The notes under the pieces: model-generated
Told to the model about the DNA's origin: nothing
Seen by the model: only the letters and a program-made list of their open reading frames with translations
The model's database searches: none
NCBI GenBank assembly: GCA_038858525.1
Contig: JAWCFL010000002.1
Span: forward strand, 13,188 to 27,047
DNA length: 13,860 bases
Direction: 5' to 3'
Origin: Candidatus Jordarchaeales archaeon
GTDB lineage: Archaea; Asgardarchaeota; Jordiarchaeia; Jordiarchaeales; Freyrarchaeaceae
Translations under genes and position numbers: made by a program
Shown: one piece after another, positions 3,396 to 6,893 of the stretch
Layout: each line of letters opens with the position of its first letter
Position numbering within the stretch: the first letter of the stretch is position 1

Positions 3396-4322
3396 ATGCT
3401 TGTCGATCCGTTCGGCCGGCCGGTGAATAACCTTAGGATTTCGCTTACCCAGAAGTGTAACCTAAAATGCTTTTACTGTCACCATGAGGGGGAGGGCTGC
3501 GGTAGCGATCCACGTAAGAAAAACGAGATGACGCCTGAGGAGGTCGCCTTTCTAGTTAGAGTTGCTGCAAAACTAGGTGTGAGAAGCGTTAAGCTGACGG
3601 GCGGGGAGCCGTTACTCTACAGTGGTGTTGAGGAGGTTATCAGAATGATTTCCTCTATAAATGGCGTCCACGAAGTCTCTATGACTACTAATGGCGTCTT
3701 CCTCTCGGAGTGGGCGCAATTACTGGCAGAAGCGGGGTTAAAGAGGGTTAACGTAAGCTTGGGCACTCTCTCAAGAGAGAAGTATAAGATGATCACAGGA
3801 CTGGACGCACTCGAAAAAGTTATTGAAGGAGTAGATGCGGCATTAGAGGCGGGATTAAAGCCCGTTAAGCTAAACATGGTTTTGCTTAGAGGAGTCAACG
3901 TTTCCGATCTGGAATCGATGATCGAGTTCTCAAGGGAGCGGAGAGGTAGTATTTTACAGGTAATAGAGCTTGTTCCCGGAGCTAACCGGGCGCTTGAAGA
4001 TTACCACGCTGATCCTCTTTTCATCGAAAAAATGCTTGAAGAAAGAGCGGTTAAGGTTGTTGTGAGGAAGATGCATAGGAGGAAAAAGTTCTTTTTGAGT
4101 GGGGGAGGGGAGGTTGAAGTTGTCAGACCTGTTCATAACAGCGAGTTTTGCGCTAACTGCAACAGACTGAGGATTACGAGTGAGGGAAAGTTGAAGCCGT
4201 GCCTCATGAAAAACGACAACCTAGTCGACGTTTTAACGCCATTAAGGCAGGGAGCTTCAGAAGAGGAGATCAAGAGGCTTTTCGTCGAAGCGGTGAACAG
4301 GCGTTCCCCATACTACCACTAA
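3396..4322 (+). CDS. moaA: GTP 3',8-cyclase MoaA (radical SAM; molybdopterin/tungstopterin biosynthesis), archaeal type
   Basis: MLVDPFGRPV..LRISLTQKCNLKCFYCHHEG (CxxxCxxC), KLTGGEP, MTTNG, C-terminal FCANCNRLRITSEGKLKPCL, and an archaeal-style PYY end. ATG 3396 is preferred over GTG 3372. Confidence 0.95.
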   Translation: MLVDPFGRPVNNLRISLTQKCNLKCFYCHHEGEGCGSDPRKKNEMTPEEVAFLVRVAAKLGVRSVKLTGGEPLLYSGVEEVIRMISSINGVHEVSMTTNGVFLSEWAQLLAEAGLKRVNVSLGTLSREKYKMITGLDALEKVIEGVDAALEAGLKPVKLNMVLLRGVNVSDLESMIEFSRERRGSILQVIELVPGANRALEDYHADPLFIEKMLEERAVKVVVRKMHRRKKFFLSGGGEVEVVRPVHNSEFCANCNRLRITSEGKLKPCLMKNDNLVDVLTPLRQGASEEEIKRLFVEAVNRRSPYYH

Positions 4323-5440
4323 AACACGTCAACTATGTCTAGGACACGTACCTGGCTTCTTTTTCTTTTAGCGCTTCTGCCTAGCATGTGCTCGCATAGC
4401 GGACATGATGTTACAATGATTTCTGCCCCGGCATCTATAGCTTCGCCCAGCCGCCTTTCAGCGATCCTAGCGGTGAGTCTAGGATGAACAATTGGAGCTC
4501 CACCCCCGCCGCCACAGCACAACGTGTTAAGCTTATTATGCTTCATTTCGACCATGACGACGCCGGGGATATTTTCGATGATCAAGCGCGGTTCATTAAT
4601 TATTCTTGAGAATCTCGCGAGGTGGCAGGGGTCATGAAAGGTTACGTGCGCATTTAAGCTTCTCGGGGTCAGTTTCCCATTTTCCATGCTTCTTGCTAGA
4701 AGTTGGGTTAAATGCTCCACTTCAACGTCGAAATCGAAGAATTTAGGGTACTCTCTTGAGAGAGTTTCGTGGCATCCGGGACATGCTGTAACAATACGTT
4801 TAACTCCCGCTTCCCTAAACTTGCCTACGACCCGTTCACCGTAATCCATGAAGGCGTCAATCTGCCCGGATGCAAGAAGCAGGTTCCCACAGCAGGGCTC
4901 GTCCGGGCCAAGCCACGCCACGCCTCCGATCCTCGAGAGGACTTCTCCTATCTTGATGAGCTTCTCAGGGAGATACTGGGCATAGCTGCAACCAGCAAAG
5001 AACACCGTTTCACCGCCTTTAGGAAGCTCAAGGAGCTTTTGAAGGGACTTAGAGTATGGGTTGCCATGGCTGAGGATCATGTCCGCCGCCTTTCTATGCT
5101 CTGGGTCGAGGCATCCTAACCGCGCCAGTTCAGCTCTGAGGGCAATTATGACGTCTACGTTTTGGAGAGCACACTTGTACATGCAGTACCCACAAGTAGT
5201 GCAGGCCGTAACAGCCCTCAACAGTTCTCCGCTGGGCTTTATAATTCCCTCAGAAAAACCTCTAGCTATCAGCATCTTTCCTCTACTGGAGTATGGCTCC
5301 AGTCTTAGCTCCTTGAAGAAGGGGCATTCCTCAACACATTGGCCGCCGCCTGTTCAGGGACAGCTATAGCCGCACCTAGCCCTGTTACACGTGTAAATGT
5401 CTGGGAGATACTTTTCGAGCAGCAAGTCATCACGCTCCAA
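4319..5440 (-). CDS. HdrD/GlcF-like Fe-S oxidoreductase subunit (2x[4Fe-4S] plus two CCG domains), split by a 27-nt intron: exon 1 5440..5366, exon 2 5338..4319, 364 aa when spliced
   Basis: TTG at 5440 lies 1 nt after the upstream TAG and is in frame with ATG 5275. The spliced N-terminus is MERDDLLLEKYLPDIYTCNRARCGY|CVEECPFFKELRLEPYSSRGKMLIARG. It is followed by CTTCGYCMYKC, FFAGC, EPCCG, VTACPGC, FHDPCHLAR, LCCGGGGG and VTSCPLC. The unspliced frame has TGA at 5356-5354. Confidence 0.88.
5339..5365 (-). other. Putative bulge-helix-bulge (tRNA-endonuclease-type) mRNA intron, 27 nt, phase 0
   Basis: RNA sequence AGCUGUCCCUGAACAGGCGGCGGCCAA. Fold: exon stem GGUGC/GUGUU; central 4-bp helix GGCU/GGCC; 3-nt bulges AU^A and AA^U on opposite strands; intron stem GCUGUC/GGCGGC closing an 8-nt loop. 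Cutting after the second nucleotide of each bulge removes the TGA and restores CGY-CVEECP. Confidence 0.85.
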
Positions 5441-5441
5441 A

Positions 5442-6893
5442 CTAATCTTTTATCCATTTTGAAGCAAACTTCTTGCCCGGATTCAGTATGTTCTTCGGGT
5501 CGAAGACGCGCTTCACCTCAAGCATGTAGTCAAAAGCAGGGCCATGTTCATACTTATTGAACCCGCCTAGCCGTTCCCCGTCTCCTATATAGGTGCTCAT
5601 CGTGCCCTCCAAGTCCACAGCCATCTTGCTCATTTCAGAAACATACTTGTAGAAGCGGCGTACCTCGTCGGGGTTCCCGTCGTCCACGAAAACCGCGAAG
5701 CTTATGCTCGGGCTCACCCTGTTAGGCCTCTGGTGGTAGACGCACATGCCCAAAACCTCTAAACCGTTCTTAGCAGCGATCTCAAGATATTTTCTATATG
5801 CTTCCTCTATTCGGCCTATCGGTATTCCTAGGTCTGCGGCGCCGAACTTTTTCATCCGTTGACTGTCAGGCCACTTTTGCTTGAATGGCTCAAATTCGAG
5901 GAGGTGCTTACTCGTCCACCAGCTTTCAACCAGCTCCCTCTCCTTAACGAGGACTCCGCCGGCTTTTTCCACGAGACTTGACGCATAGTTTCTCGAGAAT
6001 TCGACGACGTCCCTGTCTCCGCCGAAGGAGAAAAACAATATCGCTTCAGCCCACTCAGGTATCTCGGGCGCCCTGCCATATCTTTGCCTGTACGCATGAG
6101 TGTAGAACTGAAGTCTCTTTTTGCAGTTGATGTGTGCGCTCTCCACACACAACCCGGCTTGGATCATTTTTTCAAGCACAGAGACGGCGGAGGACAGAGA
6201 CTTAAATACTGCCGCCTCAACCACTCTTGCCTCAGGCTTCTTGAAAACTCTCAACGTTGCCTCAGTAACTATTCCAAGCGTCCCCTCCGCTCCAACCATA
6301 AGCCAGTGAAGCTTATAACCAGTAGAGGAGCACAGGGCCTTTCTATGCCCTAACCTAACCACCTCACCCTTACCTGTGACGACCACGACGTTCAGCAGGT
6401 AATCCGCCAGCTTACCATACCTTATACCGAACGTCCCGTCGTTATCGCACGCTATAGCAGCCCCGACAGTAGACGCCGGCTTACTTTCAGGGTCGTGAGG
6501 CCACCATAACCCGTGCTTCGCAAGCTCCTCGTTTAATGCTGAAACGGTAATCCCTGCCTGAGTCACCACGACCATGTTTTCCTCGTCTACCTCTAAAACT
6601 CTGTTGAGGCCACGTGTATCTATAAGAATACATCCCTCAACGGGGACTGCGCCGCCGCCCATCCCCGTTCCGCCGGCAAAGGGAACAACTGGGACACTGT
6701 TCTCGTAAGCCACCCGCACAACTTCAGCAACCTCTTCAGTGCTCGTCGGCCTAACGACCACTTCAGGCATCGAGTAATAATCGGCCGGTCTAGGAGACCA
6801 GTCCCTGCTATAAGTGAACCTTACAAAGTCGTCGGTGAACACTTTACCATCACCCAGTCGCCTCCTCAGCTCGTCTACGACCGCACTGCTCAT
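5442..6893 (-). CDS. FAD-linked oxidoreductase, GlcD/D-lactate dehydrogenase/VAO family (FAD-binding PCMH domain plus C-terminal cap); substrate unknown
   Basis: PEVVVRPTSTEEVAEVV, PFAGGTGMGGG, VVTQAGIT, HDPES, RYG, GYKLHWLMVGAEGTLGIVTEATLR, and C-terminal KRVFDPKNILNPGK. GGTGA RBS upstream of ATG 6893. Confidence 0.92.
   Translation of the reverse strand: MSSAVVDELRRRLGDGKVFTDDFVRFTYSRDWSPRPADYYSMPEVVVRPTSTEEVAEVVRVAYENSVPVVPFAGGTGMGGGAVPVEGCILIDTRGLNRVLEVDEENMVVVTQAGITVSALNEELAKHGLWWPHDPESKPASTVGAAIACDNDGTFGIRYGKLADYLLNVVVVTGKGEVVRLGHRKALCSSTGYKLHWLMVGAEGTLGIVTEATLRVFKKPEARVVEAAVFKSLSSAVSVLEKMIQAGLCVESAHINCKKRLQFYTHAYRQRYGRAPEIPEWAEAILFFSFGGDRDVVEFSRNYASSLVEKAGGVLVKERELVESWWTSKHLLEFEPFKQKWPDSQRMKKFGAADLGIPIGRIEEAYRKYLEIAAKNGLEVLGMCVYHQRPNRVSPSISFAVFVDDGNPDEVRRFYKYVSEMSKMAVDLEGTMSTYIGDGERLGGFNKYEHGPAFDYMLEVKRVFDPKNILNPGKKFASKWIKD

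Follow-up and report, generated by a model that had tools for sequence, protein, structure and literature searches.

A predicted bulge-helix-bulge intron in the coding sequence of an iron-sulfur subunit gene of hot-spring Jordarchaeia

How is a gene to be read when a stop codon stands in the middle of its first iron-sulfur cluster motif? The question is raised by a stretch of 13,860 nucleotides (nt), here called the window, that corresponds to contig C2:13188-27047 of a metagenome-assembled genome (MAG) of the Asgard class Jordarchaeia (2.09 Mb in 63 contigs, 92.7% complete). Its closest named loci are those of Candidatus Jordarchaeum and Jordarchaeia (= Freyarchaeota), and the DNA datasets that contain the window sequence are hot-spring metagenomes from about 10 studies. 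On the minus strand of the window there is a gene for a GlcF/HdrD-like subunit with iron-sulfur (Fe-S) and CCG domains, and its unspliced frame reads ...IYTCNRARCGY-SCP*TGGGQ-CVEECPFF...; here an insert whose in-frame TGA occupies 5356-5354 falls within the first [4Fe-4S] motif. A preliminary description made from the letters alone had already pointed to this interrupted ferredoxin-type motif, and the sequence bears it out. We consider it very probable that positions 5365-5339 (minus strand) are a bulge-helix-bulge (BHB) intron. The coding sequence in which they lie is that for the Fe-S/CCG subunit of a GlcD/GlcF-like 2-hydroxyacid dehydrogenase, an enzyme of two subunits that uses flavin adenine dinucleotide (FAD) and Fe-S clusters.

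The complete hBHBh' motif occupies positions 5333-5376 of the minus strand. It consists of an outer helix of 5 bp (GGUGC, 5376-5372, with GUGUU, 5337-5333), a central helix of 4 bp (GGCU, 5371-5368, with GGCC, 5344-5341) flanked by two 3-nt bulges on opposite strands (AUA, 5367-5365, and AAU, 5340-5338), an inner helix of 6 bp (GCUGUC, 5364-5359, with GGCGGC, 5350-5345) and a hairpin loop of 8 nt (CCUGAACA, 5358-5351) that contains the UGA. All these elements are found at the positions first proposed for them. If each bulge is cut behind its second nucleotide, exactly the 27 nt from 5365 to 5339 are lost, the stop codon with them, and TAT is joined to TGT, giving CGY|CVEECP as had been predicted. 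The intron is in phase 0: the codon before it is for Tyr, the one after it for Cys. The 20 codons of exon 1 (5366-5425, minus strand) run from TTG (5425-5423), the conserved start, to the TAT at 5368-5366 and encode MLLEKYLPDIYTCNRARCGY. Exon 2 (4319-5338, minus strand) contributes 339 codons and the stop; it includes CVEECP, which completes the first Fe-S motif, CTTCGYCMYKC as the second motif, and the two CCG domains. The predicted spliced product, which would include the peptide CGYCVEECPFFK, has 359 amino acids (aa), compared to 357-372 aa in the homologues. The Fe-S protein has a ferredoxin-type dicluster region and two CCG domains, with Pfam matches to CCG and Fer4_8.

That the insert is not part of the protein is indicated by relatives that do without it. 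The class comprises 11 species in GTDB, divided into two families, the window's own (f1, five species) and its sister (f2). In six genomes of f2 the orthologue is uninterrupted and reads RCGF|CRN or RCGY|CRE, with conserved synteny on both sides (a GlcD-like gene, 72% identical, upstream and a convergent moaA downstream). The DNA of one of these orthologues is TGCGGCTAT|TGC, which agrees in every nucleotide with the junction predicted for the ligated exons. More distant homologues, at 27-45% identity, also lack the insert and show IYTCNR(T/S)RCGF|CRExCP. The nine-residue insertion is therefore missing from the syntenic orthologues, which read RCG(F/Y)|C, as well as from the remote ones. A search of JGI metagenome contigs for the spliced or intron-less junction gave 0 matches.

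Within f1, in contrast to f2, the insert is found at the identical codon boundary in all five species and in additional metagenome variants. Its length varies: it has 27 nt and an in-frame TGA in the window, L003, L006 and L007, 28 nt and hence a +1 frameshift in L002 and L014, and 30 nt with an in-frame TAA in L008, L009, L010 and L011. A pattern scan for further unspliced variants returned 91 raw matches, four of them true loci and one a new variant. We aligned nine different inserts from orthologues (27, 28 or 30 nt) and found compensatory changes in the stem. The central 4-bp helix is paired in all cells of this alignment and both bulges are constant at 3 nt. The inner helix (6-8 bp) has been replaced outright among orthologues, with versions GCUGUC/GGCGGC, GCUGUC/GGCAGC, GCUGCCC/GGGCGGC, GCCACUU/AAGUGGC and GCCCCCUU/AAGGGGGC, and compensatory changes are seen at three pairs. 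The outer helix, made of codons, is paired in 100% of cells, pairing being kept by synonymous or conservative codon changes. Overall, 97.2% of the cells are paired, versus 34-56% when the partners are slid by 1-3 columns, and none of 500 shuffles did as well in pairing or in covariation score. From the alignment alone, RNAalifold produced the identical hBHBh' structure as its consensus. Application of the bulge rule restored RCGYC(V/I)E in each of the nine orthologues. What is conserved in the insert is the RNA pairing; the peptide that it would encode is not.

Several observations weigh against a BHB intron at this site. Four of the five pairs of the outer helix in the window are G-U and only one is G-C, a weakness that had been recognized from the start. 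The BHB fold of the window RNA has a free energy of -9.7 kcal/mol at 37 C, compared to -15.8 for a competing minimum free energy (MFE) structure, and of +2.9 at 70 C; single-sequence folding of the window RNA did not recover the BHB (z-score 0.67), so the motif stands as described but is not the fold of lowest energy. One C.A mismatch each is present in the inner helix of the orthologue L009 and of the metagenome variant L048. Three raw hot-spring metatranscriptomes from the source study, sampled at 3-5%, contained no reads over the junction and 0, 0 and 2 reads over the whole stretch, a result that speaks neither for nor against splicing. In several orthologues the BHB is the MFE structure or close to it. 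Given the poor thermodynamics and the weak outer helix in the window, cleavage would depend there on protein binding or on an EndA of relaxed specificity. Still, the motif does not look like a product of chance. In this genome, loose BHB motifs with a length of exactly 27 nt have a frequency of about 1.6e-5 per position and strand, and a chance occurrence does not appear plausible for a motif that is both rare and located at the one junction where its removal restores the motif of the intron-less orthologues. In one set of RNA contigs positions 5211-5357 were missing and no contig ran across the junction, and Rfam and tRNA scans of the window gave no matches.

Among the other explanations that we weighed, the least improbable, though we reject it too, is that the gene is broken or naturally shorter, so that only a 318-aa product is made from the ATG at 5275 and the piece upstream is a decaying remnant. 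Gene callers do assign 318 aa to five of the orthologues, and no RNA or protein data contradict this directly. However, conservation at the protein level, in orthologues down to 43-46% identity, covers exon 1 as well as the 21 codons from the insert to ATG 5275, and the signals for starting translation upstream have been kept as well. The preliminary description had begun the frame at TTG 5440, which has to be revised: the likelier start is the conserved TTG at 5425-5423, preceded by a Shine-Dalgarno-like GGAG (5435-5438, minus strand) 9 nt upstream. The orthologues have GGAG, GGGG or GAGGTG at an equal distance from the start codon. This codon is conserved in the nine orthologues (TTG, in one case GTG), and so is the 20-residue peptide of exon 1, the N-terminus of which agrees in position with those of the intron-less homologues; the differences among the orthologues are mostly synonymous. 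When exon 1 of the window is compared with that of L008, about nine codon changes are synonymous and three are non-synonymous, and on this comparative evidence exon 1 is under purifying selection. Besides, a remnant would not retain a covarying helix with fixed bulges across five species.

A second explanation would keep the insert in the protein. If the TGA were a selenocysteine codon, SCP-U-TGGGQ would be a real nine-residue insertion in a selenoprotein; the read-through frame is open, and Jordarchaeia do recode TGA as selenocysteine, with a few selenoproteins (PMC9723677). We regard this as very unlikely. The stop is TAA in L008, L009, L010 and L011, and the 28-nt inserts of L002 and L014 shift the frame. 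The insert peptide varies while the RNA pairing is maintained, and neither the syntenic nor the distant homologues have any insertion at this point. The main text of the Asgard selenoproteome paper contains no mention of HdrD, glycolate, Fe-S or CCG.

The frameshifting inserts would be tolerable if the ribosome hopped over the gap, as in gene 60 of phage T4, given that such translational bypassing is independent of the reading frame. It also speaks for bypassing that the gap contains a hairpin and a stop codon and is flanked by GGC on either side. But the stop comes after three other codons of the insert rather than directly after the take-off codon, and a hop from GGC to GGC would yield RCG-QC and lose the aromatic residue (Tyr or Phe) present in all homologues. 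What has been conserved, moreover, is the precise 3-4-3 arrangement of the BHB that EndA takes as its substrate, and the same motif is found in cbf5 and other genes of this genome, leaving bypassing with as little credit as selenocysteine. The least probable of all is an assembly or sequencing artefact, conceivable in a MAG of 63 contigs but excluded by the same or orthologous insert in independent NCBI, JGI, ENA and Logan assemblies, with thirteen DNA runs from about 10 studies containing at least half of the sampled 31-mers of the region.

The BHB intron therefore remains, in our view, the best account of the locus, and the genome encodes the enzymes that it would require. Two EndA paralogues were detected with the tRNA_int_endo profile (110.7 and 80.6 bits), one at C3:81835-82089 (minus strand; open reading frame, ORF, of 193 aa) and the other at C43:5978-6235 (plus strand; ORF of 198 aa), and RtcB scored 601.5 bits. 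Two paralogues fit an endonuclease of the broad-specificity (alpha-beta)2 type, a heterotetramer. The (alpha-beta)2 and epsilon2 forms of EndA are the types given as cutting non-canonical introns (PMC5829648). According to a recent preprint, two EndA paralogues are present in 44 of 60 Asgard genomes. In Freyarchaeia/Jordarchaeia introns interrupt 92-95% of the tRNA genes (bioRxiv 10.1101/2023.11.21.568159). From the comparative evidence and this enzyme repertoire we infer that the RNA of the Fe-S gene is cleaved and ligated. The pre-mRNA would fold locally so that the 4-bp helix stands between the two 3-nt bulges, with a further helix on each flank; EndA would then cleave after the second nucleotide of each bulge, and RtcB would join the exons, the 27-mer being probably circularised. 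The stop codon would thereby be gone and the first [4Fe-4S] motif rebuilt as CNRARCGY|CVEECP, leading to the 359-aa protein. Splicing might even be conditional and act as a switch, which is a possibility. The earlier interpretation of the locus as mRNA splicing in a metabolic redox gene is supported by our results, and the in-silico tests that had been suggested along with it were all favourable.

In the literature that we searched, the only published BHB intron in an archaeal coding sequence is that of crenarchaeal cbf5, to which one case in a 5' untranslated region can be added (PMC7714728, PMC10485636). Papers that name cbf5 as the sole coding-sequence case expect more to be found, and the genome papers on Jordarchaeia/Freyarchaeia and a 2026 preprint on Asgard tRNA introns leave protein-gene introns unmentioned. 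Like the intron in cbf5 of Crenarchaeota (Watanabe 2002; Yoshinari 2006; Yokobori 2009, PMC2738675), the one described here is a short coding-sequence BHB intron associated with a two-subunit EndA. In both an essential motif is disrupted, so that removal is required, and presence is patchy among related lineages. They differ in that the host gene is a metabolic Fe-S/CCG subunit rather than an RNA-modification enzyme, in the phylum (Asgard, Jordarchaeia) and in that splicing is here a prediction. By its location the intron of the Fe-S gene is outside the cbf5 family, and the cbf5 gene of this genome has a separate intron of 30 nt. With the BHB sites of archaeal pre-tRNA and pre-rRNA, processed by EndA and RtcB, it shares the identical motif and the same cutting rule, and its 27-30 nt are within the range of tRNA introns; unlike them it is in an mRNA without a tRNA body, with an exon-side helix made of codons that in the window pair mostly as G-U. 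HVO_1309 of Haloferax volcanii (Schwarz 2020, PMC7714728) also provides an mRNA as substrate of the splicing endonuclease, as we predict for the Fe-S gene, but its intron is in the untranslated leader and no reading frame depends on its removal. The EndA of this euryarchaeon is given as the alpha2 type (PMC10485636). A more remote parallel is the splicing of eukaryotic XBP1/HAC1 mRNA by IRE1 and RtcB, where a protein endonuclease and RtcB-type ligation also remove a short coding-region intron and alter the protein; there the endonuclease is a different one, the motif consists of twin stem-loops instead of a BHB, and splicing is regulated by stress, whereas no regulation is known for the Fe-S gene. 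The XBP1 intron has 26 nt. The case for a BHB intron in this mRNA, with a host gene and a phylum that are both new for the kind, is strongly supported in silico, with splicing as the predicted outcome.

The preliminary description had regarded metabolic redox genes as an undescribed class of target. This holds for the literature searched, yet the Fe-S gene does not stand alone among the protein genes of this genome, several of which are interrupted. In cbf5 (C1:177182-177211, plus strand; L114:283-312) a strict BHB insert of 30 nt, containing an in-frame TGA, lies at the codon of the catalytic Asp, which is where crenarchaeal cbf5 has the intron whose splicing was shown by experiment (PMC2738675). 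In ppsA, which codes for a PEP synthase/PPDK-like enzyme (C1:42657-42676, plus strand; L112:658-677), there is a frame-shifting BHB micro-intron of 20 nt; PPDK_N of Pfam matches with positions 2-113 before the insert and 115-317 after it, and the spliced product reads VAVRSSASAED|LPGASFAGQQ. The gene of EF-2 (approximately C4:81117-81145, plus strand) contains 29 nt that split GTP_EFTU at model position 80. Here the motif is relaxed, with a central helix ACGU/GCGU, bulges AGA and AAA and an inner stem of 9 bp, without an adjacent outer helix, and its removal leads to LIDTPGHV-DF-TGHVTRALR. Less firmly, we assign a BHB intron to the gene for a NiFe-hydrogenase/NuoD-like large subunit (C2:3086-3135, minus strand; L113:1387-1436), which carries a strict BHB insert of 50 nt near its 5' end, with an inner helix of 9 bp and an outer helix of 7 bp (spliced, IPVGPQHPALH|EPEHFQIFVEGE). 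A genome scan for strict BHB motifs with ORF-restoring removal gave 84, versus 52-63 for six decoy bulge geometries, a modest excess in a scan that is noisy and insensitive. Loose criteria yield thousands of chance motifs, and strict ones miss relaxed introns such as that of EF-2.

We think it likely that in the hot-spring family of Jordarchaeia splicing by EndA and RtcB is routine for many housekeeping and metabolic mRNAs, with BHB introns of 16-70 nt that are each conserved across species. If true, this would be a prokaryote with commonly interrupted protein genes, in the archaeal group closest to eukaryotes. BHB introns are unrelated to spliceosomal introns. The predicted intron of the Fe-S gene adds a well-supported example to the published ones, in an Asgard metabolic redox gene and retained throughout a family. 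Metabolic reconstructions of Jordarchaeia and protein databases will systematically miss or mangle such genes, and gene callers need a BHB-aware step for lineages of this type. The Fe-S gene illustrates the problem well. Public calls for its orthologue group (P0002-P0009) are all wrong at the 5' end, as had been anticipated from the window: the deposited products are truncations of 318 or 287 aa, or a protein of 379 aa that fuses two frames. The odd N-terminus of this last one (P0003), begun in another frame, is accounted for by the 28-nt form of the insert.

The partner of the Fe-S gene lies immediately upstream (5442-6893, minus strand) and codes for a GlcD-like FAD-linked oxidase of 483 aa, with Pfam matches to FAD_binding_4 and FAD-oxidase_C. 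From its stop codon to the start of the Fe-S gene there are 16 nt, and the gene order is kept in all the orthologous loci. For both subunits all NCBIfam matches were below the cut-offs, and so no substrate has been assigned to the pair. In one MAG (QC4) the GlcD-like gene appears split into two ORFs (L002:2214-2226), which we considered as a second intron and rejected, as the interruption is a scaffold gap of 12 N.

A further 29-nt candidate BHB insert was noticed at C25:8156-8184 (minus strand). Its core, GGCU[AUA]...GGCC[AAC], is nearly identical to that of the insert in the Fe-S gene, a similarity that may reflect a shared origin or a sequence preference of EndA. Lastly, L010 and L011 (GCA_038894675.1, GCA_038889235.1) and L014 (JAPDJY010000039.1) are labelled 'Nitrososphaerota archaeon' or 'Thermoproteota archaeon' in the public records. 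The coordinates of L011 and L014 coincide with those of genomes G003 and G004, placed in the window's family of Jordarchaeia. All three loci have the gene order and the intron of the window, so that the public taxon labels look wrong.
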